In this document: piece after piece, positions 5,859 to 36,045 of the stretch
Layout: each line of letters opens with the position of its first letter
Position numbering within the stretch: position 1 is the stretch's first letter
IMG/VR virus record: IMGVR_UViG_3300031965_000093
Span: 1 to 36,045 of that record
DNA length: 36,045 nucleotides
DNA from: a virus
Strand: one strand, 5' to 3'
The notes under the pieces: model-generated
Seen by the model: only the letters and a program-made list of their open reading frames with translations
The model's database searches: none
What the model was told of the DNA's origin: nothing
Translations under genes and position numbers: made by a program

Positions 5859-6095
5859 ATGGAAAATATAGATAAAATAGAAAAAATATTGTTAGCAAGT
5901 GATATTCTCTTTTCAAGAAAAGAAGATTTGATAACGATTGAATACAAAGAATGTAATAATTTCAATGAATTATTAAATTTAATAGGGTCTTTTATCTTGA
6001 ATGGTTTTTCTATAACAACAAACGGTAAAATAGAAAAAGATTTTAGTTTAAAAATAAACAACAAATTATTAATTAAATGGTACTACAATGAATAA
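5859..6095 (+). CDS. Hypothetical small protein, first gene of the glycan island
   Basis: The track ORF starts at 5841, but that ATG overlaps the -10 box. The in-frame ATG at 5859 (MENIDKIEK...) is more plausible. It overlaps the next gene by 8 nt. Confidence 0.45.
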   Translation: MENIDKIEKILLASDILFSRKEDLITIEYKECNNFNELLNLIGSFILNGFSITTNGKIEKDFSLKINNKLLIKWYYNE

Positions 6096-7203
6096 AAAAG
6101 TTTTAATTTTGGGAAGCTCTGGTTATATAGGAAATGCTCTTTTTGAATATTTACAAAATAAAGGATATGAAGTTAAGGGTGTTGATAATCAAATGAGAGA
6201 AAAAAATGTTGAATCAATCGGATCTAAGTCTATAACAAATAAAAAATATTTTCCTTTTCATCTTTTGGATATTGTAGAAGATAAAGATGATTTTAATTTG
6301 CTTATAAAAACATTTAAACCTGATGTAATTGTAAATCTAGCACACCAACCATCTGCTCCTTTTTCAATGATTGATTCTAAACACGCAATGGAAACTCAAA
6401 AAAATAATATTTTAGGGACTCTAAGTGTTTTATATGCCATAAAAGAGTATTGCCCTGATGCACATTTAATCCAACTAGGAACAGAGGGTGAATATTCTGC
6501 TGATTTATGGGATGGGAAAAAAATACCAGAGGGGAGCATAATGAAAGTATTTTTACCGAAAGAAAATATTGAATTTGACCAAGATAATTATGATGAGTGG
6601 GAAATCCCAACACCTCGCTACGGGGGAAGTTTCTACCACTTCTCAAAAATATATTCAGATTACAACATAGATTACGCTTGCAAACTTTGGGGAATAAAAG
6701 CAACAAATATTCAACAAGGAGTAATTTATTCTCACAGGTATAACACTAGACTTGATGTAGATAACTGGTTTGGAACAATAATTAATCGTTTTGTTGCACA
6801 GGCCGTATTGGGTATGCCATTAACAGTTTACGGAACAGGAGGACAAACAAGAGGATTTATTTGTTTACAAAACTCTCTTGAAGCCATTGAATTATTTATT
6901 GAAAACCCTGCCGACAAAGGAGAATTTAGAGTAATACACCAATCCACGGAGTCTTTGAATGTAATGGATATTGCAAAAATGATTCAGGAAAAAACTGGAT
7001 GTGAAATAAAATGTATTGAAAATCCTAGGATGGAAAAAGATAAAAATAATTTCACTTTTGACACTAGCACACTTGATAACCTAGGATTAAAACGTATTAA
7101 ATTTGAAGATGAGTTGCCTCATTTAATTAAAGTAATGGAAGAAAATAAAAATAATATTATCAAGGATGCTTTATCAATAGAAACATTAACAAAATGGAAA
7201 TAA
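6088..7203 (+). CDS. SQD1/SqdB/Agl3-like extended SDR (UDP-sulfoquinovose synthase homologue)
   Basis: GSSGYIGN Rossmann motif, VDNQMRE...SIGSKSIT, QPSAPFSMID, GTEGEYS, SFYHFSK (Y-H-x-x-K), WGIKATNIQQGVIYS, PLTVYGTGGQTRGF, GEFRV. These line up closely with plant SQD1 as I recall it. Confidence 0.8.
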   Translation: MNKKVLILGSSGYIGNALFEYLQNKGYEVKGVDNQMREKNVESIGSKSITNKKYFPFHLLDIVEDKDDFNLLIKTFKPDVIVNLAHQPSAPFSMIDSKHAMETQKNNILGTLSVLYAIKEYCPDAHLIQLGTEGEYSADLWDGKKIPEGSIMKVFLPKENIEFDQDNYDEWEIPTPRYGGSFYHFSKIYSDYNIDYACKLWGIKATNIQQGVIYSHRYNTRLDVDNWFGTIINRFVAQAVLGMPLTVYGTGGQTRGFICLQNSLEAIELFIENPADKGEFRVIHQSTESLNVMDIAKMIQEKTGCEIKCIENPRMEKDKNNFTFDTSTLDNLGLKRIKFEDELPHLIKVMEENKNNIIKDALSIETLTKWK

Positions 7204-7207
7204 AATT

Positions 7208-7780
7208 ATGAACGAAAAATATTGGCCAGAGTTTTATAAGAATAAAGAAATAAATAAACCTAGCGAATTTGCATTTTTTTGTTTCATGAATTTTTTAATC
7301 AAAAGAGAATACGACAATATCAGATTATTAGAAGTAGGGGCTGGGGATGGTAGGGATACAAAATTATTTTCACGGCACATTGAAGATTTGACAGTTATTG
7401 AACCAAACAATGAAAATGTAGAAAATATAGGTTGTATGTACCATAAAAAAAAATTTGAAAATTTTGAAAAAATATATCATGGGGTTAGATTTGATTATAT
7501 TTATGCACGGTGGTTTTTACATGCTGTATCGAAAGATGTTGAAGATAAATTAATCGATTTCGCCATAAAAAATAATTCGATTATAATGCTCGAATTTAGA
7601 ATTATAGGAGATAAACCTGATTATACCCACGAAAGAAGATTGATTGATTTAGAAAAGTTTATAAAAAAATTATTAGATAAAGGATTTGTTATAAAACATT
7701 TAGAAAAAGGAAAGGGGTTATCTAAGGTCGGAGATAATGACCCTTTATTAGCAAGAGTAATAGCAGAATACAATGGTTAA
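7208..7780 (+). CDS. Class I SAM-dependent methyltransferase
   Basis: Motif I LLEVGAGDGRDTKLF followed by an acidic loop VIEP. 190 aa. Confidence 0.6.
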   Translation: MNEKYWPEFYKNKEINKPSEFAFFCFMNFLIKREYDNIRLLEVGAGDGRDTKLFSRHIEDLTVIEPNNENVENIGCMYHKKKFENFEKIYHGVRFDYIYARWFLHAVSKDVEDKLIDFAIKNNSIIMLEFRIIGDKPDYTHERRLIDLEKFIKKLLDKGFVIKHLEKGKGLSKVGDNDPLLARVIAEYNG

Positions 7781-8327
7781 ACTAGAGCATATAAAAGAAA
7801 ATATAAGAGATGCAAAAGAGATAGCCGAAAAATTAAACTTCCCTATTATTCTTGATGGTGGTTCGCTCCTCGGAGCATACAGAGATAAGGGAGTTATCAA
7901 AGGCGATGAGGATGATGTTGATTTTGCCGTGCCTTATGAAGTGGCAGAATTTAAAATGTTGCAGATAATTAAAGAATTTGAAGAAAGAGGTTTTGAATTG
8001 TTTAGATTAAGACCGACTGTTATGACTTTCAAAAGAAATGAAACCAAGATTGATTTGCTTTTTTATAAATGGAGTGAAGATTGGGGTTGTAATTATTTAA
8101 CTCTTTATCACGATAAAAAACCTTTTGCTTTGATCGTTCCAGCAGGATACTGGCTTGATTTGTCAGAGATAGAATTTTTAGGCATTAAATTAAAATGCCC
8201 CAAAGAGATAGAAAGGTATCTTGAATGGAGATTCGGGGACTGGAGAACACCTGTATTAAGACCAAACTTTGGATTCCAAAGTTATTTAGAAAATGATTAT
8301 AACAAAGAACTTACACAATGTCTTTAA
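7773..8327 (+). CDS. LicD/fukutin-like nucleotidyltransferase-fold phosphotransferase
   Basis: ILDGGSLLGAYRDKGVIKGDEDDVDFAV matches the LicD G-x-LLGA-x-R...DDD-x-D signature. 8-nt overlap with the upstream gene. Confidence 0.55.
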   Translation: MVKLEHIKENIRDAKEIAEKLNFPIILDGGSLLGAYRDKGVIKGDEDDVDFAVPYEVAEFKMLQIIKEFEERGFELFRLRPTVMTFKRNETKIDLLFYKWSEDWGCNYLTLYHDKKPFALIVPAGYWLDLSEIEFLGIKLKCPKEIERYLEWRFGDWRTPVLRPNFGFQSYLENDYNKELTQCL

Positions 8328-9124
8328 TTAAAAAAGACAAAAAAATAGCAGTAATACTTCACACAACTTTCACTCGCTTTGAATATGCAAAAAAGACGAT
8401 AGAGAGTTTTATAAAAGACAAAAGATTTGTCCTTTATGTGTCCGATACAGGAGCAATAACACCTGAAAAACTAGATTATTACAGGGAGTTAGAGAAGAAA
8501 GGACACTATACTTTTATGACTGGTTGGGACACTTCACCTGCTATAACTAGAAATTTTTTAGTTGATAACGTAGAAGAAGATTATATATTTAAGATTGATG
8601 ATGATTTTGAATTTAACGACAAAGATGTAAAAGTCGCAGAGATAATAAAATTGCTAGACGAAAATCAAAATCTTGGTTTAGTTGGGATGTCAGTAGTAAG
8701 TGCAAAGGTAAAATCAAAATTTGTTTTCCATGCAGAAAGATTAACTGATAGTAAACAAGGAGATTTTATGAAACTAGATCCGATTGATTTAGAAAAAGTT
8801 AAAGAAAATATTTATTGTGATGTTACACCTGATTGCTGGATTGCCAAAAGAGAGATATTTCCTGATTGTAATTGGGACGAAAGATACCATGTTAGCGAAG
8901 GACTACACACAGATTTCTTTTTACACATTAAATTCAATACAACGTGGCGAGTAATGTATAAACCAGATAGCATAATGTATACTTTTAAATATGATGGCAA
9001 ATTTGATATATCAGAAAATAAAGGAAGTTTTTATAATCGCAAAAGATTTAGAAAAGTAAAAAATTTAGAAAATTTTAGTAGAAAATGGAGATTAAGAAAA
9101 GAAAATCCTATAAATCGTTGGTAA
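8318..9124 (+). CDS. GT-A fold (GT2-like) glycosyltransferase, paralogue of 11287-12066
   Basis: IAVILHTTFTRFEYAKKTIESF, FKIDDDFEF (DxD), VGM, HTDFFLHIKFNTTWRVMYKPD. The same motif order is found in 11287-12066. Confidence 0.55.
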   Translation: MSLIKKDKKIAVILHTTFTRFEYAKKTIESFIKDKRFVLYVSDTGAITPEKLDYYRELEKKGHYTFMTGWDTSPAITRNFLVDNVEEDYIFKIDDDFEFNDKDVKVAEIIKLLDENQNLGLVGMSVVSAKVKSKFVFHAERLTDSKQGDFMKLDPIDLEKVKENIYCDVTPDCWIAKREIFPDCNWDERYHVSEGLHTDFFLHIKFNTTWRVMYKPDSIMYTFKYDGKFDISENKGSFYNRKRFRKVKNLENFSRKWRLRKENPINRW

Positions 9125-9125
9125 T

Positions 9126-9866
9126 ATGATAAGTGGAAATAGAAAAAAAGAATATAACAAAGGTTTAATAACTGTCGCAACAGGAGAGTATAACGAATTT
9201 ATACCAAGTATGATTAAATCTGCAAAGGAATATTTCCATTGCCATTTTTATATCTTTACAGACAAACCTGAAATGTATGAGCATTTTAGCGATATAACAA
9301 TAGTAAAAATTGAGCATTATGGTTGGCCTAAAATGCCCTTGTTAAGATTTGAATTATTGCATAAAAATATAGATTTATTTAAAGAAAGTTATCTATTTCT
9401 TATTGATTCAGAAGCAATTTTTGAGAAACCAATTACACAGGCAATATTAGGGTATAGAGTGGCAACGCTCCACAGGAATATAACTCGTTTAAGAGATGAA
9501 TTTAATTATGAAACAAGACAAGAAAGCACAGCTTTTGTAGGAAAACACGAAGGGGAAAAATATTATGCTTGTGGTTTTGTTGGAGGACAAAAAAGAGAAT
9601 TTAAAAGAATGTGCAAAGTAATTTCTGAAAATATACGGACAGATATAAATAATGGTATCCGTGCAATTTGGGGTGACGAAAGCCATTTAAATAGATATTT
9701 GATAGATAATAGACCTGACGTTGTTTTACCGCCAAATTATATGTGTCCATCTACAAACTCATATTTTATACCTTTCATAAAACACAGAGATAAACAATTT
9801 AAAAGAGTAAACAAAGAAGACACAAAAAATTATTTAATAGTTAATAAAGAAGATTATAATTTATGA
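9126..9866 (+). CDS. GT6-family (ABO / alpha-1,3-Gal(NAc) transferase-like) glycosyltransferase
   Basis: ITVATGEYNEFIPSMIKSAKEYF, FYIFTDKPE, WPKMPLLRFE, FLIDSEAIF (in place of DVD), YACGFVGG, AIWGDESHLNRYL, LPPNYMCP. The motifs are collinear with vertebrate/bacterial GT6 enzymes. Confidence 0.75.
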   Translation: MISGNRKKEYNKGLITVATGEYNEFIPSMIKSAKEYFHCHFYIFTDKPEMYEHFSDITIVKIEHYGWPKMPLLRFELLHKNIDLFKESYLFLIDSEAIFEKPITQAILGYRVATLHRNITRLRDEFNYETRQESTAFVGKHEGEKYYACGFVGGQKREFKRMCKVISENIRTDINNGIRAIWGDESHLNRYLIDNRPDVVLPPNYMCPSTNSYFIPFIKHRDKQFKRVNKEDTKNYLIVNKEDYNL

Positions 9867-10588
9867 AAATACTTATAACAGGATCGGAGGGTTATATAGG
9901 ATCTCGTCTAAAAAAGAAAATACAAGATTTAGGAATCGGGGAATTATTTTTAATTGATTTGAAAAAAGGTAATGATTTAATGACTGCTAAACTTCCTGAT
10001 GTAGATATTGTCTTTCATCTATCAGCACAATCCGGTGCAATTCCATCAATAGAAAATCCAATTTGGGATGCTAGGACAAATATTTTGACGACGATAAGAT
10101 TGGCAGAACACTATAAAGGAAAAGCAAAAATAATTTATACAACATCAGGCGGAGCAAAAGACCCTGAAAGTCCGTATGGTTTGAGCAAAAAAGTTGGAGA
10201 AGAATATTTAAAAATGATACATAACAATACAGTAATTTGTCGCCTATCTTCTATTTATGGAGGAAAAGATAGGGGCGTGGTCGATAATTTTATAAGAGAT
10301 GAAGTTCCTACAGTTTTTGGAGATGGTTCTGCTGTTAGAGATTTTGTCCATGTTGACGATATTATTGAAGGACTAATAAAAGCAATGGATTGGGAAGCCG
10401 TAGAATATGAAATGGGTAGTGGCATAGGAACTTCTGTAAAGGAAATTGCTGACGCTACTGGAAAACAAATACAATATTTACCAGTAAGAAAAGGAGAAAA
10501 ACAAGAAGCAATTTTGCAAAACACAACACCTAATTGGAAACCAGAAATCGAAGTCTTATTTTATATTAAAAGTTTAACTAACAAATAA
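9863..10588 (+). CDS. Short NAD-dependent sugar epimerase/dehydratase (GalE-like SDR)
   Basis: ILITGSEGYIGSRL glycine-rich motif and YGLSKKVGE (YxxxK). ATGA overlap with the GT6 gene. Confidence 0.7.
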   Translation: MKILITGSEGYIGSRLKKKIQDLGIGELFLIDLKKGNDLMTAKLPDVDIVFHLSAQSGAIPSIENPIWDARTNILTTIRLAEHYKGKAKIIYTTSGGAKDPESPYGLSKKVGEEYLKMIHNNTVICRLSSIYGGKDRGVVDNFIRDEVPTVFGDGSAVRDFVHVDDIIEGLIKAMDWEAVEYEMGSGIGTSVKEIADATGKQIQYLPVRKGEKQEAILQNTTPNWKPEIEVLFYIKSLTNK

Positions 10589-10593
10589 ATAAT

Positions 10594-10773
10594 ATGAGAG
10601 TTAAACCAGAAATAAAAGAAACAGAAAACTTTGGAAAAATCGTCAGAATTAGTGATGTTGAAGGTTTCGGCGATTGGTTAAGGGGACAAACAATACCCTT
10701 TTTAGAAAATGATGAAAATCCTGAAGATTGGGCTTATTATGGGGATTATTTAAATTTTATTGATAAAAATTAA
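10594..10773 (+). CDS. Small hypothetical protein (59 aa, MRVKPEIKETENFGKIVRISDVEGFGDWLRGQTIPFLENDENPEDWAYYGDYLNFIDKN)
   Basis: One codon below the track cutoff. The start is embedded in the conserved TAACAAATAAATAATATG junction. Confidence 0.5.
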   Translation: MRVKPEIKETENFGKIVRISDVEGFGDWLRGQTIPFLENDENPEDWAYYGDYLNFIDKN

Positions 10774-10789
10774 CTAACTAATAAATAAT

Positions 10790-10954
10790 ATGAAAGAAAA
10801 AATAAAAGAATCCGAAATTAGTACTTCTCTTATAGAGATTAACTTGAAGTATTCCGAGTGGCAGAATATGTATACATTCGGTCGCTGGTTTAATATGAGG
10901 ATTTTTAGCTTTATATTTCCAACTGTATTAAAAATAAACATTACAAGGGATTAA
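10790..10954 (+). CDS. Small hypothetical protein (54 aa)
   Basis: The ATG is preceded by AAATAATATG. It fills the gap between neighbouring ORFs. No motif seen. Confidence 0.3.
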   Translation: MKEKIKESEISTSLIEINLKYSEWQNMYTFGRWFNMRIFSFIFPTVLKINITRD

Positions 10955-10968
10955 GTAAATAATTAAAT

Positions 10969-11196
10969 ATGAAAATAAAAGCAACATTAGAAAAAGTAAA
11001 CGAAGCATTAAATAAAATTAAAGAAGTTGGAAATATAGCAGTTAATGGTTCGGAAGGGAGTTTTTCAGCAAAAGGAGTTGAGGGGCGATTTTCTTTTGAC
11101 CAAGAAAACGAAATACTAACTGTAGTTATTGATGATAAACCTTGGTTAGCTTCTGATTCTATGATTGAAAGTGAAATTAAAAAGTTTTTTAATTAA
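10969..11196 (+). CDS. Small hypothetical protein (75 aa)
   Basis: Track ORF in the gene-dense + strand context. Confidence 0.5.
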   Translation: MKIKATLEKVNEALNKIKEVGNIAVNGSEGSFSAKGVEGRFSFDQENEILTVVIDDKPWLASDSMIESEIKKFFN

Positions 11197-11197
11197 C

Positions 11198-11260
11198 TTT
11201 GAGTCCCAAATTACTCAAAAAATTTACTGGTTGAAATAATCGTGGGGTGAAATTCCCCAC
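11198..11260 (+). terminator. Two tandem hairpins (tttgagt/actcaaa at 11198-11219; gtgggg/ccccac at 11242-11260), weak terminator or RNA-processing site
   Basis: Stems of 7 and 6 bp in a 90-bp intergenic gap. Neither has a clean T-run. Confidence 0.3.
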
Positions 11261-11286
11261 ATATTTAAAATTAAACATTTTAAACT

Positions 11287-12066
11287 ATGAAAAATAAATT
11301 AGACATACTAATAACAACATTTTTAAGAAATGATAAACTCGCAAATCTAGTATCATCAATCCCTGAAAAATATAAAGAAAGAATTTTAATTGGAGATCAA
11401 AACGAAATAAAAAATAATCAATATTGGGATAATCTTATTTATTTACCATATAACTGCGGACTGTCAGTCGCAAGAAATGAATTAGTCAGAGCAACCGAAA
11501 AAGAATTTGTTTTAATTTTAGAAGATGATTTTGAATTTACACACGAAACTAACATAGAGAAAATGATAGAACTTATGTCTATTTCGCCTGAAATTGGCAT
11601 TGTAGGGGGTAGAGTGCAACAAAACGATATAGATATACCATTTGAGTTTATACCAACCATAGAGGACGGAATTTTGTACCACAAAGACGATGGTAACGAT
11701 TGGAAAATTCACAATGGTATAATATATAAAGAAACAGGTTGTTGTCTTAATTTTATGCTTGTCCGTAGAGAAGTTTTTAAAGATGTAAGGTGGGACGAAA
11801 AATTAAAATTGCGAGAGCATGTTGATTTCTTTTTGAGACTAAAAAATACAAAATGGAAAGTATTATTTACTCCCGATGTAAAGATAAAAGATGCAAAGAC
11901 TAGACCGAGTGAAGAATACAAAAGAATTAAAAAAGAAAATCAAGATTTATCACTTCCTTATTTATTTGAAAAGCACATTATCCACAAAATTATATACAAA
12001 AACGGTTTTACTTATGAAATAAAAAATGGTATTATTAGTCATTATAAAAGCCCCATAAATAATTAA
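11287..12066 (+). CDS. GT-A fold (GT2-like) glycosyltransferase, paralogue of 8318-9124
   Basis: LDILITTFLRNDKLANLVSSI, LILEDDFEF (DxD), VGG, HVDFFLRLKNTKWKVLFTPD. Confidence 0.55.
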   Translation: MKNKLDILITTFLRNDKLANLVSSIPEKYKERILIGDQNEIKNNQYWDNLIYLPYNCGLSVARNELVRATEKEFVLILEDDFEFTHETNIEKMIELMSISPEIGIVGGRVQQNDIDIPFEFIPTIEDGILYHKDDGNDWKIHNGIIYKETGCCLNFMLVRREVFKDVRWDEKLKLREHVDFFLRLKNTKWKVLFTPDVKIKDAKTRPSEEYKRIKKENQDLSLPYLFEKHIIHKIIYKNGFTYEIKNGIISHYKSPINN

Positions 12067-28631: not shown

Positions 28632-29120
28632 ATGATAAATCTAGCAACAATTAAAAAATATGTAAATGATTTAATTATTAAGTTAGATGAGGTTATTACA
28701 GCTCTCGGTAATATAGAAATAGATACAGAAGGTATTGATTTAAACACTGACGAAATAGAAGGTAAACTTGATATCTTAAATGCTACAGATTTCTCAACCT
28801 CAGAAAAGCAAGATGATATTATTGCCAAATTGGCGGAAGTTATTGATACCCCTGAATTTTTCGAGGATACTTCTTTCGTCACTGGGGATAGCCCTGTAAC
28901 ACTTGACCTAAACACTGCTCTTGGAAGAAACGCCACACAAGGGTATATCATCAATGACGGAGCTGGCAATTTCACTGTGTCTTTCTCAACTGACGGAATA
29001 GCTTTCGGTGATGCGATTACAATGAAGAAAAATGAGATTTTAGAATTTGAAAAAATAAGCGTTGATTCTATAAAAATAACTTGGGTAAGCGACAGTGCTT
29101 ATCGTGTTTCAGTGATATGA
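28632..29120 (+). CDS. Hypothetical protein (162 aa)
   Basis: Track ORF. ATGA overlap with the fibre gene. Confidence 0.5.
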   Translation: MINLATIKKYVNDLIIKLDEVITALGNIEIDTEGIDLNTDEIEGKLDILNATDFSTSEKQDDIIAKLAEVIDTPEFFEDTSFVTGDSPVTLDLNTALGRNATQGYIINDGAGNFTVSFSTDGIAFGDAITMKKNEILEFEKISVDSIKITWVSDSAYRVSVI

Positions 29121-31291
29121 TAAAACTAAAAAAACAATTTATAGATGACCATTCACTGCTAGATAATCTTGCAGTAGATGACCACACCCAATACGCTCTC
29201 CTCGCAGGTAGGGCAGGTGGGCAGACTTTAATCGGGGGAACAGCTAGCGGAGAGAATCTCATATTGCAATCCACTTCTCACGCCACTAAAGGCAAAATCC
29301 TTTTTGGCACTTCGGCTTATGATGAGGTGAATAACAGGTTGGGGATTGGTGAAACAGCCCCAGGGGCACAACTTCAAGTCAATGCAGTCACTGCTTCAGT
29401 AATTGCTCAAATCATCAAAGGTGCAACATCTCAATCTGCTAACTTATCTGAATGGAGAAATTCAACAGGTACTGTTCTAACAAGAGTCTCACCAACAGGA
29501 ATAATCAGCTCTGGTAGCGGAGTTACTGATATTCTTAAACTTCAAGGAACTTCTGGAAATGGAACAGCGACAAGTCCAGCCATTCAATATCTAGTCGGAA
29601 ATAATGGGGCGACTATTGCAGGAACTTTTTTAAATAATGGAAATTTTGGCTTGGATACTGTTGCACCAAGTGAAATACTTTCTTTCGGAAATGCTCAAGC
29701 TAGGAAGATTTGGATTGAAACTACTGATTATAACACTGTCGGTAGGGAATTGACTGTTTCAGCTGGGAGTACCATAAATACTGACCCATCTGATGGTACT
29801 TTTAATTCTCTTAATCAAACAGTCCGTCAATGGTATGGTGTTGCTTCCGCACCTAACGGAGATATTTATGCTTGTGTTTATAATGGCGACATCTACATGC
29901 AGACTGGCGGAACAGGGGACTTTATAGCTTTAAGCCAAACAACTAGGGCATGGCAAGTAATAGCAGCTGCTCCAAATGGTGATGTTTATTGTGCTGATGC
30001 TGGTAGAGATATTTACAAACAAACTGGTGGCACAGGTAACTTTATCGCTCTTGGGCAAACTAATAGAAACTGGAAAGGATTAACAGTCAATCCAATTACA
30101 GGTGATGTTTATGCTTGTGTTCAGAATGGAGATATTTATATGCAAACCGCTGGGGCTGGTAATTTTAACGCTCTAAGCCAGACTGCTAGAAATTATTGGG
30201 GTATGGCTGTCAATCCGCTCACGGGTGATGTTTATGTTGGGGTGTATGGTGGTGATATTTATATGCAAACAGGTGGCACAGGTACTTTCAATGCTTTAGG
30301 GCAAACTAATAGAGCCTGGTTTGGATTAGGTTCTGACCCTAGTGGAAATATCTATGCAACTGTTGACGGAATAAATATATTTAAACAAACAGATGGAAGT
30401 GGTGCGTTTGTTTCTTTAAATCAAACAGCTAGACAGTGGTATGGTATCGCTGGTGCACCAAATGGTGATGTTTATGCTACAGTATGGAATAGTGGTAATA
30501 TTTATAGACTAAACGCTTTATCAGGTGGTACTGCAGACCTTGCAGGTGGAGACTTAATCCTTTCATCTGGACAAGGCAAAGGAACGGGCACAAGTACGGT
30601 TTATATAAAAACAGGAACGACTCTCACCACTGGCACATCACTGCAAACATTATCAAACAAGGTGGCTGTGTATGGAAATGGTAATACTCATTTATTATTA
30701 GACAATCAAAAACTTTTATTCGGTGCAGGGCAAGACGCTAGTATTCTTTATGACGGAACAGACTTACATATTGACTCAGCCTTAGTCGGAACTGGTATTA
30801 TTAGTTTAGATAGCGATACAAAACCCGTTGGTCGTTTAATTGTTCCTATGGGTGAAATAAACTATTTTGATACTACAGGAACAGCCATAACTATATCAAC
30901 TCAATCAGACGGCTCATCTAATATGGTGCTAGTCAATCCAACCACAGCTTTATCTTCGGGAGAATATGAATTTGATAATGGAGGGGGGAATACTGGCAGA
31001 TTAAGATACATAGGAGAAACAACGAAGATGTTCCACATTGCTTGTACAATTTCATTTTCACCAGCAACAGCAAATGATGAATTTGTTATCGGTATAGCTA
31101 AAAATGGAACTGTTATCAGTCAATCCAAAGTTATCAATATGGCGAGAGGTATCGGTGAAACCTCAAGCACTGCATTACACATTATGGCAGAATTGGCAAC
31201 TGACGATTATTTGGAATTATATGTCGGGAATCTTAGTACAACTGGAAACTTTACAATTAAAACAATTGCAATGTTTGCTATGGGATTATAA
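29117..31291 (+). CDS. Tail fibre with a conserved N-terminal anchor, six ~40-aa propeller-like repeats, and a C1q/TNF-like jelly-roll tip
   Basis: The track start at 29081 overlaps the upstream gene. The ATG at 29117 gives an ATGA junction (MIKLKKQF...). Motifs DDHTQYALLAGRAGGQTLIGGT, then the repeats, then a C-terminal FHIACTISF...IGIAKNG...LELYVGN...FAMG pattern. Confidence 0.75.
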   Translation: MIKLKKQFIDDHSLLDNLAVDDHTQYALLAGRAGGQTLIGGTASGENLILQSTSHATKGKILFGTSAYDEVNNRLGIGETAPGAQLQVNAVTASVIAQIIKGATSQSANLSEWRNSTGTVLTRVSPTGIISSGSGVTDILKLQGTSGNGTATSPAIQYLVGNNGATIAGTFLNNGNFGLDTVAPSEILSFGNAQARKIWIETTDYNTVGRELTVSAGSTINTDPSDGTFNSLNQTVRQWYGVASAPNGDIYACVYNGDIYMQTGGTGDFIALSQTTRAWQVIAAAPNGDVYCADAGRDIYKQTGGTGNFIALGQTNRNWKGLTVNPITGDVYACVQNGDIYMQTAGAGNFNALSQTARNYWGMAVNPLTGDVYVGVYGGDIYMQTGGTGTFNALGQTNRAWFGLGSDPSGNIYATVDGINIFKQTDGSGAFVSLNQTARQWYGIAGAPNGDVYATVWNSGNIYRLNALSGGTADLAGGDLILSSGQGKGTGTSTVYIKTGTTLTTGTSLQTLSNKVAVYGNGNTHLLLDNQKLLFGAGQDASILYDGTDLHIDSALVGTGIISLDSDTKPVGRLIVPMGEINYFDTTGTAITISTQSDGSSNMVLVNPTTALSSGEYEFDNGGGNTGRLRYIGETTKMFHIACTISFSPATANDEFVIGIAKNGTVISQSKVINMARGIGETSSTALHIMAELATDDYLELYVGNLSTTGNFTIKTIAMFAMGL
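29801..30529 (+). repeat. Six tandem ~120-bp coding repeats (consensus F-x-A-L-x-Q-T-x-R-x-W-x-G-[ILV]-A-x-x-P-x-G-D-[IV]-Y-A-x-V-x-x-G-D-I-Y-x-Q-T-G-G-T-G)
   Basis: Read from the translation: FNSLNQTVRQWYGVASAPNGDIYACVYNGDIYMQTGGTGD, followed by five further diverged copies. Confidence 0.8.
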
Positions 31292-33379: not shown

Positions 33380-33454
33380 GAGGGTTTATTGGTTTAGCCC
33401 TCTCTATATTTGCATCGATGCCACGAAGCCCCTGTATAGGGGTTTTTGTGTTTT
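33380..33454 (+). ncRNA. Candidate ~75-nt small RNA (promoter, hairpin, 10-bp palindrome, terminator)
   Basis: Hairpin at 33380-33402 (gagggtt/agccctc), palindrome GCATCGATGC at 33412-33421, terminator at 33426-33454. No ORF and not tRNA-like. Confidence 0.3.
33426..33454 (+). terminator. Rho-independent terminator
   Basis: aagcccct-gtat-aggggttt stem-loop followed by tttttgtgtttt. It marks the end of the late/lysis block. Confidence 0.75.
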
Positions 33455-33559: not shown

Positions 33560-34051
33560 ATGAAAAACGAAATATTAAATATTTTTGAACCAACCGAACA
33601 AATAAGAAGTTGGAAAAGAACCAAAAAAGAAAACAACACATCATTATATATTTTTCTTTCGGTCATAGTGTTATATTTTTTGTTTGGATATTGCCAAAGT
33701 GTTTTCGGAACGATTAGATATGTTGCCGAAGCTGAAGAAGAAAACTTTTACACAATGCAAGCAAGCATAACAGCATACAGCGAATTAGACAGTTGCCACA
33801 ATAAAAATTGCGAGATGGCTAGCACGAAGAGAGCCTATGTAGGAGCTATTGCTTGCCCTCGTGAAATATCCTTAGAAACAAAAGTAATAGTCAAAGGAAC
33901 TACTTACACTTGCGAAGACCGAACAGCAAAATGGGTAGAAGAAAAATACCCAAACACCTTTGACATTTTCTTTGGATATGGCGAAGAAGCCCACATCAAA
34001 GCATTAGAATTTGGAAGACAAAATTTATTAGTTAAGATTTTAAATAAATAA
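33560..34051 (+). CDS. Membrane-anchored 3D-domain (YuiC/MltA C-terminal-like) cell-wall protein
   Basis: N-terminal TM helix (LYIFLSVIVLYFLFGY), then ITAYS...MAST...GAIACPREISLETKVIV...YTCEDRTAK...FDIFFG...FGRQNLLVKIL. Confidence 0.6.
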   Translation: MKNEILNIFEPTEQIRSWKRTKKENNTSLYIFLSVIVLYFLFGYCQSVFGTIRYVAEAEEENFYTMQASITAYSELDSCHNKNCEMASTKRAYVGAIACPREISLETKVIVKGTTYTCEDRTAKWVEEKYPNTFDIFFGYGEEAHIKALEFGRQNLLVKILNK

Positions 34052-34055
34052 AATA

Positions 34056-34292
34056 ATGGAAAACTTAACCAACAAAATAGAAGATTTAAAACTACTAGCA
34101 GATTATTGTGGATTATCATTTTCTGGGATAAATGAAGATGGTTATCCTGAATTTACTGGAACATCAAAACAACAATCAGATTTCGAAGCAATTAAAGATA
34201 ACGAGGTCTATCAAGATGACGAAGGTTTTTATATTGAAACAGAAGATGAAGGTGAAAATCAATTTATTATAAGTAAAATTTATATCAACTAA
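34056..34292 (+). CDS. Highly acidic small protein (78 aa)
   Basis: By hand count, 19 D/E versus 5 K/R, for example YQDDEGFYIETEDEGENQF. Confidence 0.55.
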   Translation: MENLTNKIEDLKLLADYCGLSFSGINEDGYPEFTGTSKQQSDFEAIKDNEVYQDDEGFYIETEDEGENQFIISKIYIN

Positions 34293-34303
34293 CAATAAAT
34301 AAT

Positions 34304-34654
34304 ATGAAATATAAAAGAAATGGAGACCATTATCTCCACCCAATAGAAAACTTACCAAAAGGATTAACAAAAATAGAACATAAAAAAAATTTCGTCTTCG
34401 GAACAGGCGAAGCAAGTAATCATTATCATACCATTGTCTCTGATAGAGTAGATGATTTTGACATTTATCAGGACGAGAAAGGAAGATATTATTTTGTAGT
34501 AAAAACTGACGATGTAAAATGCGGACACTTTGAAGGTAATTCAAATAAAACAGCCGACCACGAAACTATTCCATTACAAAAGAAAATTTATAAGCAAGTT
34601 CTTGAAAGGGAGTTAGATTTTTCAACAGCTATTGAAAGAAATGTAATTGACTAA
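34304..34654 (+). CDS. Hypothetical protein (116 aa) with a GEASNHYH motif
   Basis: Track ORF. The start lies in the AAATAATATG junction. The family is not recognised with confidence. Confidence 0.55.
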   Translation: MKYKRNGDHYLHPIENLPKGLTKIEHKKNFVFGTGEASNHYHTIVSDRVDDFDIYQDEKGRYYFVVKTDDVKCGHFEGNSNKTADHETIPLQKKIYKQVLERELDFSTAIERNVID

Positions 34655-36029
34655 AAATATGATTACAAAATTAAACACAAAACAAGAACAAGCAATTCAA
34701 CCGTTTGTTAAAAAATGGACCGATAGAATTTTAAGGACGGAACAAACAGACGAAGAAATTAAAGAAAACGTTAAAAATATTTATCGTATTGCTGGTTTAC
34801 AAGAACCAAAAGAAGTATGGATAATGGATAGTATGCTTGGTGTTCAGTATGCTTGTAATTTTTTAAACCAAAACATCCACGAAAACATCCACCAGAAAAT
34901 GAAACAGAACATCTTCCAGAACATCAAACGGAACATCTACCGGAACATCCTCCAGAACATCGACCAGAACATCAAACAGAACATCTACCGGAACATCGGC
35001 CAGAACATCGGCCAGAACATCGCCCAGAACATCGTCCAGACCATCGGCCAGAAAATCCTCGAGAACATCCGCCAGAACATCGACCAGAACATCAAACAGA
35101 AAATCCTCGAGAACATCGACCAGAACATCAAACAGAACATCAAACGGAACATCTACCGGAACATCCTCCAGAACATCGACCAGAACATCGACCAGAACAT
35201 CAAACAGAACATCAAACAGAAAATCCTCGAGAACATCTACCAGAACATCTACCAGAACATCGACCAGAACATCAAACAGAACATCAAACAGAAAATGAAA
35301 CAGAACATCTTCCAGAACATCAACCCGTTAGATTATTTTATCACTTCGTGGAATGAAGCTTCTTGGCTACAATGGTATGTTTATCAATTATTCTATTTCG
35401 AAATAGGACTTCTAAAAGAAGATAAATATTCAAAATTATTGAGAGGTTATATCAATAATGTTATAGATATATGGTCAGTTGTCTACTTTGATGAAATTTC
35501 TATTGTTTCCCGAAAACCAAAAATTAAACAAAATCAAGACCAAAGACTACATTCAACAAATTCACCAGCAGTATCGTTTATTGATGGATATGAGTTGTTT
35601 TATATCAACGGAATTAGTTTTGAAAAAGAACTTTGGGAAAAAATAACTTCAAAAAAAATAACATTCAAAGAAGTGTTGGATATTGCAGATGTGGACCAAA
35701 GAAATCAAGCACTTATGTTTGTAGGTGATGAAGAGAGAGATAAATGGCTGGAATATGTAAAAGCAGAAATAATTGATACTTACGAAAAACAAACAATTAA
35801 CGGAAATCCTGTTTATTATAAACTCTACAAAATCCCGAAAAATGAAATATTTTCAACCGATGTATATGCAATGTGGTATACCTGTCCGAGTACTAATAAA
35901 CAGAATTTCAGCCGTGTCCCAGAATTTAAAACAGTCGCAGAAGCAATGGCGTGGAAAGGAAGTGATGACGAAAACATTATTAGCCCAGAAGATTGGAAAA
36001 ATTGTATTCCACTTTTGGATGAGAGTTAA
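34647..36029 (+). CDS. Tetrapeptide-repeat protein: a 74-aa N-terminal domain, 38 x (Q-N-I-x), and a ~235-aa C-terminal domain
   Basis: Translation is uninterrupted through the array. The flanking domains are non-repetitive (N-terminal LNTKQEQAIQPFVKKWTDRIL..., C-terminal ...LHSTNSPAVSFIDGYELFYINGISF...). Confidence 0.8.
   Translation: MTKNMITKLNTKQEQAIQPFVKKWTDRILRTEQTDEEIKENVKNIYRIAGLQEPKEVWIMDSMLGVQYACNFLNQNIHENIHQKMKQNIFQNIKRNIYRNILQNIDQNIKQNIYRNIGQNIGQNIAQNIVQTIGQKILENIRQNIDQNIKQKILENIDQNIKQNIKRNIYRNILQNIDQNIDQNIKQNIKQKILENIYQNIYQNIDQNIKQNIKQKMKQNIFQNINPLDYFITSWNEASWLQWYVYQLFYFEIGLLKEDKYSKLLRGYINNVIDIWSVVYFDEISIVSRKPKIKQNQDQRLHSTNSPAVSFIDGYELFYINGISFEKELWEKITSKKITFKEVLDIADVDQRNQALMFVGDEERDKWLEYVKAEIIDTYEKQTINGNPVYYKLYKIPKNEIFSTDVYAMWYTCPSTNKQNFSRVPEFKTVAEAMAWKGSDDENIISPEDWKNCIPLLDES
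34869..35324 (+). repeat. 38 tandem 12-bp units, consensus C(A/G)GAACATCNNN
   Basis: Units were enumerated by hand from 34869 (caaaacatccac) to 35313 (cagaacatcaac). Internal higher-order duplications are 34917-34973 = 35133-35189 and 34893-34927 = 35289-35323. Confidence 0.95.
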
Positions 36030-36045
36030 TAACAAATAAATAATA
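35919..36045. repeat. Terminal overlap copy B (identical to 1-127)
   Basis: See the first feature. Confidence 0.9.

Follow-up and report, generated by a model that had tools for sequence, protein, structure and literature searches.

The last gene of a 36,045-nucleotide phage sequence (IMG/VR record IMGVR_UViG_3300031965_000093, positions 1 to 36,045; hereafter the window) encodes a 456-residue protein in which 38 consecutive tetrapeptides stand between two globular domains, and it lies directly downstream of a small histidine-rich gene that accompanies its homologues in other phages. Here, we describe the anatomy of this gene (34659-36029; coordinates of genes and of their parts are given on the + strand of the window), its place in the DUF6745 family, the DNA grammar of its repeat and the natural copy-number alleles found among its relatives. 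We regard the tetrapeptide array, with good confidence, as a hypervariable contingency region under selection. For the protein as a whole, we favour, tentatively and at a little under an even chance, a role as a recombination-tuned accessory module in phage-host conflict, most likely in counter-defence, by analogy with gp54 of mycobacteriophage Tweety.

The gene is defined by its open reading frame (ORF) and translation and by an identical public gene call (P0001), which starts at ATG 34659, 4 nt past the stop codon of the upstream gene. A first-pass annotation made from the sequence alone had opened the gene at an alternative in-frame TTG (34647), giving 460 residues; the reading frame and the end that it gave stand, and the start moves to the ATG of the public call. 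The N-terminal globular domain of about 70 residues (34659-34868) shows the pattern LTxEQE...KW...Y..GL..P...DSP, which is common to the family and is covered by no Pfam model. It is followed by the array (residues 75-226, 34869-35324) and by a C-terminal globular region of 234 residues (35325-36026), which contains a DUF6745-like domain at approximately 35487-35957 with the motifs RLH..SPAV.F.DGY..FYINGI and DVDQRNQ. Codon-by-codon reading and Tandem Repeats Finder (12-nt period, 38.2 copies, 34867-35325, 80% matches, 0% indels, with an additional 72-nt higher-order period) agree on the strict period-4 run of Q-N-I-x units that had been described at first pass, and the residue counts bear out that description position by position: Q 29, R 5 and E 4 at position 1; N 32, K 5 and T 1 at position 2; I 36 and M 2 at position 3; and 11 different residues (K, D, Y, L, G, H, F, N, A, V, R) at position 4. 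At the DNA level, the unit reads CAG AAC ATC NNC, or has AAA replacing NNC, and its variation is concentrated at nucleotides 10 and 11 (entropy of 1.97 and 1.35 bits, against 0-0.56 bits at nucleotides 1-9), with true synonymous differences nearly absent. The array is built of the genome-minority codons CAG, AAC and ATC (in the rest of the genome, CAA stands at 83%, AAT at 73% and ATC at 13%), and the GC content of a 13-unit stretch of it is 0.50, against 0.32 in the remaining window.

The same grammar recurs in the homologues. An array of at least five units, set between the N-terminal and DUF6745 domains, is present in 158 of the 166 family proteins examined (95%), with a median of 21 units and a maximum of 69. 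Bacterial relatives that combine x-Q-V-x runs with the C-terminal motif of the window protein, to which the first-pass annotation had pointed, also exist, as GQVx in locus L022, SQVx in L023 and many arrays of DQV, SQV and AQV. The dominant residue at position 3 is V in 95 arrays, I in 23 and L in 21 (139 of the 158 arrays), and one member (L008) uses T; position 2 is dominated by N, Q, S or A, and position 1 by D, S, A, Q or N. When the units of the whole family are pooled, R occurs 880 times at position 4, G 699, W 676, E 329 and D 182 times. The residues R, G, W and E interconvert by single-base changes of NGG or GAG codons, and the codon-4 sets of individual arrays are one-step neighbours, such as AGG/TGG/GGG/GAG or GGT/CGT/GAT. 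A reading of the W and G residues as GW/WG 'Argonaute hooks' was rejected, G and W never being adjacent in the arrays.

We computed the entropy of each unit nucleotide for 14 family genes and Tweety gp54 (15 genes in total), with the register set so that the most variable amino-acid column became position 4. In 15 of 15 genes, the entropy is about 0 bits at most positions of the unit, among them all or nearly all third positions of codons, and in the 14 family arrays 8-10 of the 12 unit nucleotides hardly vary. Variation falls on the first base of codon 4 (0.8-2 bits), on the second base of the same codon (usually about 1 bit or more, range 0.2-1.8) and often on the second base of codon 1 (0.7-1.0 bit). 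Two of these results do not simply follow from the register chosen: third positions avoid variation, and the hydrophobic residue always stands directly before the variable one. In addition, the GC content of the array exceeds that of its own locus in 14 of the 15 genes. The unit DNAs of different homologues are unrelated to one another (CAGAACATC, TCTAACATC, GATGCTGTA and GGCCAGGTG); it is therefore the peptide grammar that is conserved, and not a DNA motif.

Natural alleles of the array differ in copy number. Two related phage genomes recovered from different samples, L001 (SPAdes, 38,307 bp) and L032 (MEGAHIT, 38,273 bp), match at 100% identity through 5,082 nt upstream and 10,868 nt downstream, and their sole difference is a precise 120-nt (10-unit) indel in the array with its ends within an internal direct repeat of 54 nt. 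The longer of the two alleles turned up in three samples. Similarly, the proteins P0011 and P0012 have identical flanks (350 residues) and arrays of 31 and 9 units, respectively. Because the flanks are identical while the unit numbers differ, the comparison indicates that no locus of these genomes changes faster than the array, which does so through recombination or slippage between its internal repeats. In P0132 (604 residues) and P0161 (635 residues), the whole arrangement of N-terminal domain, linker and DUF6745 is duplicated head-to-tail in one polypeptide, and the arrays are so degenerate that they have ceased to be repeats at the DNA level; in three of the four linkers there is nevertheless a hydrophobicity peak at exactly 4.0 residues (power of 160, 83 and 93, against at most 15 at 3.6-3.67). 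Because the degenerate linkers keep this peak, our data indicate that period 4 is a structural feature maintained by selection and not a product of slippage alone.

Membership of the DUF6745 family was established through the homologues rather than by the direct Pfam score of the window protein, which lies under the cut-off of PF20530 (E 3.2e-5, 23.7 bits, cut-off 27). The C-terminal region matches phrog_31813 (E 3e-11), 19 of 21 homologues (25-62% identical) carry PF20530, and the C-terminal profile built from the family alignment (A1) recovers gp174 of Microcystis phage Ma-LMM01 with an E value of 2e-27, a protein that itself scores 54 bits on PF20530. In the viral library of Foldseek, the top match was again this DUF6745 protein of phage LMM01 (E 4e-14). 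The core motif RLH...PA...DG...Y..NG[IV] is present as RLHSTNSPAVSFIDGYELFYINGI, with L297, H298 and D309 near-invariant and G318 invariant, and the C-terminal motif of GPA-x-x-x-DG type that had been noticed at first pass (SPAVSFIDGYELFYINGI) belongs to this conserved core. Since the homologues carry PF20530 and their profile recovers gp174, the window protein is, on profile evidence, a DUF6745 family member. The N-terminal domain is kept in alignment A1, and its profile is found in most related loci. With the A1 profile, a search of 1.84 billion cluster representatives returned 14,746 clusters at E<=1e-3, the weakest tier of which may in part be repeat-driven, 10,004 at E<=1e-10 and 3,990 at E<=1e-30. 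Thus, two early impressions need revision: the flanking domains are not ordinary, the C-terminal one being DUF6745 and the models of the full-length protein and of its partner having no match among solved structures, and the protein is no family-less novelty, as its family comprises about 14,700 clusters and has been assigned no function. The contigs that carry related loci were assigned to Patescibacteria, Chloroflexi, Proteobacteria, Actinobacteria, Nitrospira and others, and many are phage-sized. A literature search found no paper naming DUF6745 or PF20530, and NCBIfam gave no meaningful match for the array protein or its partner.

The gene directly upstream of the array gene (34304-34654) encodes a conserved partner of 116 residues with seven invariant histidines and the motif GEASNHYH, for which AlphaFold2 predicted an all-beta fold with a predicted local distance difference test score (pLDDT) of 78. 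It is 46-47% identical to the genes that abut the family gene in L001 and L004, its homologues in our protein set are P0024-P0031, and an iterated profile found a homologue in 23 loci, including gp175 beside gp174 in Ma-LMM01 and the loci L009 and L011. In the loci where both genes were scored, the partner lies on the same strand as the family gene, either upstream or downstream, at a gap of about -54 to +50 nt, and most loci without a partner match are truncated and end at the family gene. This linkage indicates that the partner and the array gene are a conserved two-gene module. In relatives, the module is set among small early, replication or recombination genes: its neighbours are a DNA polymerase and a uracil-DNA glycosylase in Ma-LMM01, UvrD and a methyltransferase in L009, and a helix-turn-helix regulator and a Rad52-type protein in a Shinella contig. 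A Cpn60/GroEL-like chaperonin gene is also found a few kb downstream of the module in related phages of approximately 38 kb (L001 13488-15475; L004 12452-13936), together with a Cpn10-like gene in L001.

The closest known parallel to the array is gp54 of Tweety, in which unique N- and C-termini surround 40-48 tetrapeptide repeats (PMC2884959). In its 12-bp unit, third codon positions are invariant and first and second positions vary, and the repeat forms a GC spike (Pham et al. 2007, PMC2884959). The repeat copies number 48, 26 and 15 in the phages Tweety, Che8 and PMC, and Pham et al. 2007 considered the repeats to be under selection for variation and likened them to variable region 2 (VR2) of Bordetella phage BMP-1 (PMC2884959). 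The gp54 results of Dedrick et al. 2017 are taken here as two reviews relate them: in these accounts, defence-escape mutants gain or lose gp54 repeats, by which counter-defence is tuned against the Phrann gp29/gp30 or MichelleMyBell prophage defences (PMC9262239, PMC8549241), by a mechanism that is termed obscure (PMC8549241).

The window protein, with its 38 units between a 70-residue N-terminal and a 234-residue C-terminal region, shares with gp54 and its relatives (Che8 gp57 and PMC gp51; phrog_3416) the placing of tens of tetrapeptide units between unique ends. Read in the same register, gp54 units are S/Y-A-A-[G/W/Q], and the S-A-V-x and D-A-V-x arrays of the DUF6745 family are close to them. 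Both kinds of array have a 12-bp unit with invariant third positions and with variation that falls in the same two codons, at codon positions 1-2, and identical computation on the gp54 locus (L005) gave an entropy profile that matches those of DUF6745 arrays. In both, the GC content of the array is above that of the genome, copy number differs among close relatives (shown here for family members other than that of the window phage), and the gene lies among early, non-structural genes. The window protein thus resembles gp54 in every respect that can be tested at sequence level, yet it falls outside the gp54 family. It has no match to phrog_3416, tblastn with gp54 matched only Mycobacterium and Gordonia phages, gp54 has neither a Pfam domain nor DUF6745 and has a much shorter C-terminal region, and position 3 is Ala in gp54 and I, V or L in DUF6745 arrays. 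We therefore regard the array protein as one of a gp54-like kind with different end domains and a dedicated partner, a kind that appears to be more general than first thought.

Because the traits of the array match those of this tunable counter-defence protein, we propose a model whereby the window gene encodes a phage accessory protein, in which an unnamed N-terminal domain and DUF6745 flank a fast-evolving array, and which would work with the adjacent small histidine-rich beta protein and be expressed with the early and recombination genes. The near-identical 12-bp units would be easily gained, lost and reshuffled by recombination or slippage, and the array would thereby serve as a contingency region, in which selection would keep the polar-polar-hydrophobic scaffold and diversify position 4 and, more weakly, position 1. 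We infer that this variation is adaptive. By analogy with gp54, a change in the number or order of units may retune the spacing and orientation of the end domains or the exposed surface of the array, and the protein so retuned may engage a defence protein of the host or of a prophage. An anti-defence role had seemed plausible at first pass and now has a concrete precedent in gp54 (PMC2884959, PMC9262239, PMC8549241); the position of the module amid early, replication and recombination genes, in the window and in relatives, supports it.

Several observations weigh against a counter-defence role. No experiment or sequence homology ties DUF6745 proteins to defence, counter-defence having been demonstrated for gp54 only, and PADLOC returned only low-complexity matches for the array protein and its partner. 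The flanks of gp54 are unrelated to the DUF6745 family (hhalign probability of 0.07%), no partner gene was detected beside gp54, and the partner profile had no match in the gp54 locus. Foldseek found no relative in the PDB for the full-length model (nothing below E 0.08) or for the partner (nothing below E 0.87), and HMMER on PDB sequences, which likewise revealed no relative of the partner, gave only low-complexity noise. The copy-number differences are known from short-read metagenome assemblies, a single array allele is known for this phage, with length variation seen in relatives only, and the invariance of synonymous sites could stem from homogenisation alone. In addition, some family members (Ma-LMM01 gp174, P0009 and P0018) carry no repeat, and the core function can therefore do without the array. 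One of these, gp174, has a homologous C-terminal domain, the shared N-terminal domain and the same partner directly upstream (gp175), and differs in having a non-repetitive linker of about 80 residues in place of the array.

A wider reading, which we regard as possible and on the whole doubtful, is that the array is a general phage hypervariable module with one variable residue per unit (mostly R, G, W or E, an alphabet linked by single-base changes), which recombination between 12-bp units would reshuffle, providing a programmable binding surface or ruler on an unseen period-4 fold. Such a module would have been recruited independently by at least two unrelated families, those of DUF6745 and of Tweety gp54, and in DUF6745 proteins it would neutralise host immunity together with the histidine-rich partner. 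When the array alone served as query against the protein database, bias filters left only 2 matches. Arrays of transcription activator-like effectors (TALEs) and the variable regions of Bordetella phages BPP-1/BMP-1 offer a parallel, in that DNA repeats are near-identical except at the specificity codon or codons and units are reshuffled by recombination; they differ in their units of 34 and 8 residues, respectively, against 4 here, and no ligand code is known for the DUF6745 array. Mutagenesis driven by a diversity-generating retroelement (DGR) was set aside, as no reverse-transcriptase-like ORF was noticed among the proteins viewed and no reverse transcriptase or template repeat was noticed in the window, where no dedicated search for them was made.

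The AlphaFold2 monomer model of the window protein, built from a 22-sequence alignment, gives the N-terminal domain as one strand and two helices, with a further helix that begins there and runs into the array (pLDDT of approximately 76-92), the C-terminal region at a pLDDT of approximately 76-93, and the array as a pair of long helices, for which the pLDDT is only about 50. A strict i, i+4 hydrophobic stripe is incompatible with a canonical coiled coil, and Chou-Fasman propensities over 132 arrays are nearly balanced (P(alpha) of 1.00 and P(beta) of 1.05). The order of position-4 residues was examined in 86 arrays for superperiods of 3, 4, 5 or 6 units per coil, and no lag stands out, a result that gives no support to a solenoid with distinct faces and is uninformative if the units are equivalent. 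The proteins with pentapeptide repeats (consensus A[D/N]LXX), which form the Rfr quadrilateral beta-helix, resemble the array in their order of small or polar, Asn/Asp, hydrophobic and variable residues and in their long uninterrupted runs; they differ from the window protein in its period of 4 (12 nt) instead of 5 and in its lack of a detectable superperiod of four units per coil, and Pfam Pentapeptide did not match the window protein even at E<=1.

To the choice between a helix and a solenoid that the first-pass annotation had left, we add a third option, a triple-stranded beta-helix of the kind formed by the C-terminal part of T4-type gp5 (gp5C; PDB 1K28 and 9F4A). The array scores below threshold against the gp5 beta-helix model PF22178 (E 0.02, 15.5 bits, cut-off 30.9), matches phrog_430 in the repeat region only (E 2e-4), and reaches KVP40-like gp5 in tblastn with E values down to 6e-6. 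The gp5 of Vibrio phage 6E35.1a, a KVP40-like protein, contains the tract ...DQNVNQTVHQNVTQEVDGNVSQTVHQNVTQQVDQNVTQTV..., which has the Q-[N/T]-V-x grammar of the array, within a segment that aligns to the solved T4-type gp5 beta-helix (9f4a, 1k28) at E 7e-60. This gene (L030 52-1317) encodes about 14 consecutive period-4 units of Q/G-[N/T/E/Q/H]-V-x in its C-terminal beta-helix, and the canonical octapeptide can therefore be read as two near-equivalent tetrapeptides. A 14-column hhalign match between the family and Vibrio phage gp5 lay outside the array and was disregarded as spurious. Because a gp5 homologue of solved fold carries such a period-4 tract, a trimeric beta-helical rod is physically plausible for the array as well; between a period-4 helix and a gp5C-like trimeric beta-helix, we lean slightly towards the helix that the monomer model suggests.

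As a functional proposal, the rod would be a homotrimeric gp5C-like triple-stranded beta-helix with two tetrapeptides per octapeptide strand, rising by about 2.4 A and turning by 60 degrees per unit (our estimate from the published gp5C geometry), and it would serve as a rigid spacer or as a virion fibre or spike of tunable length, with the HxH-bearing partner as its cap or tip. We judge it unlikely, with a share of the probability that is small without being negligible. In its favour are the gp5 matches just given, the 6E35.1a tract ...VDQNVNQTVHQNVTQEVDGNVSQTVHQNVTQQVDQNVTQTV... inside the region aligned to 9f4a and 1k28, in which the variable residue would face outward, and the preference for beta-branched residues at position 3, where V and I dominate and L008 has T; moreover, an intertwined trimer is beyond a monomer AlphaFold2 model, so that the helix predicted at a pLDDT of about 50 is weak counter-evidence. 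However, the Pfam match is far under threshold and low-complexity repeats inflate such scores. The canonical gp5 octapeptide is VxGxxxxx with a kink Gly, whereas the window array has period 4, places no regular Gly at the kink and shows no superperiod of 8 residues (the lag-2 autocorrelation at position 4 is not positive). Position 1, which would face the interior, is frequently Asp and ranks second in variability, and E, K, R and L abound in the degenerate arrays, a helix-like composition. Finally, gp5 carries an oligonucleotide/oligosaccharide-binding (OB) fold and a lysozyme domain and is encoded in the baseplate module, whereas the window protein has neither domain and its gene has an early or replication context and not that of a tail module.

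More improbable still in our view is that the array is a neutral, slippage-prone linker of drifting length, with all function residing in the end domains and the partner. The array-less members, the range of lengths from 0 to 69 units and the apparently random order of position-4 residues speak for it, as does the location of indels between internal direct repeats, where simple slippage or recombination would be expected to leave them. A neutral linker, however, accounts poorly for the retention of the array in 95% of the members examined and for a grammar of polar, polar, V/I/L and variable residues that is kept despite wholly different unit DNA. Nor does it account for variation that, in each of the genes analysed, gathers on the non-synonymous sites of a single codon, or for an exact period-4 hydrophobic pattern that persists in degenerate arrays; and in Tweety, as the review cited for it relates, repeat number has a phenotype (PMC9262239).

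It is very improbable that the repeat acts primarily as DNA or RNA, as an iteron-like binding array, an origin element or a recombination hotspot of which the peptide would be a by-product. This possibility draws on the invariant synonymous sites, the use of the rarest codons of the genome, the raised GC content of the array, a GC skew of approximately zero over the last 2 kb of the window and the adjacent genes for an ERF-type annealing protein and an exonuclease. Against it, homologues have unrelated unit DNAs under one peptide grammar, the frame is without exception open and in phase, a binding site would have its most variable two nucleotides at its middle, and degenerate arrays drop the DNA repeat and keep the peptide period. 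Least credible of all is that the array was collapsed or expanded in assembly or that the ORF is broken in the true genome: the source is a short-read metagenome assembly, in which tandem repeats are error-prone, but all 77-mers of the array are unique, its longest internal exact repeat is 57 nt, an independent assembly (contig L031; ENA ERZ27256875, MEGAHIT k141) is 100% identical over 3,371 nt through the whole array and the circular junction, and the architecture recurs in thousands of relatives, so that an artefact, which the first-pass annotation had named as a danger, is unlikely.

The genome itself is a complete circular assembly, in which positions 1-127 and 35919-36045 form an identical terminal direct repeat of 127 nt (its junction confirmed by the independent contig), leaving a unique length of 35,918 bp. 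The window has a GC content of approximately 31% and all its long ORFs on the + strand; no tRNA genes were found in it, a megablast search with 20 kb of it matched no isolated phage, and its large terminase subunit is only about 32% identical to that of isolated phages. A terminator-like hairpin with a 9-pair stem and a T-rich tail (33425-33446, + strand; a consensus match only) separates the upstream tail-fibre gene from a block of four genes (33560-36029), which encode a 163-residue protein with a hydrophobic N-terminal segment (33560-34051; a weak match to phrog_6631, of unknown function, E 4e-4), a 78-residue protein (34056-34292), the partner and the array protein. On the circular map, this block is followed by two small ORFs, the ERF-type single-strand annealing protein (565-1314; PF04404, E 6e-21) and the YqaJ-type exonuclease (1307-1927; PF09588, E 1e-16), both in agreement with their PHROG annotations, and the early inference that the array gene lies just upstream of the recombination genes thus proved correct. 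The TTGACA promoter that had been placed before this block did not: no TTGACA-N15-19-TANNNT occurs near the gene, and promoter-like sites are found at the level of chance (24 against 21.6 expected).

Other features of the genome were observed in passing. Just downstream of the annealing protein and exonuclease genes, the ORF at 1930-2820 contains a Lys/Glu-rich low-complexity tract of AAG/GAA repeats (2490-2685), and a 736-residue tail-fibre-like ORF (29081-31291) contains a tandem repeat of 123 nt (30006-30313; 2.5 copies, 70% match). A cluster for sugar or polysaccharide modification (6088-12066) comprises two NAD-dependent epimerase/dehydratases, a methyltransferase, a LicD-family protein, and two GT2 and one GT6 glycosyltransferases; it is unusually large for a 36-kb phage genome, and its target could be the host surface, the phage DNA or the virion.

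Tweety gp54, whose counter-defence specificity is retuned by repeat number, has long stood as an isolated curiosity. Our analysis suggests that the logic of its array is a hallmark of a huge, uncharacterised family in the phages and prophages of many bacterial phyla, with the same scaffold grammar, hypervariable codon, invariant synonymous sites, raised GC content and copy-number alleles. If the analogy holds, DUF6745 proteins would constitute a large and so far untapped class of proteins able to evolve in anti-defence, or in exclusion, and would offer many non-mycobacterial systems in which the mechanism and the period-4 fold might be solved. If it does not, the family would still be among the larger domains of unknown function, and one that bears the signature of diversifying, recombination-driven evolution.

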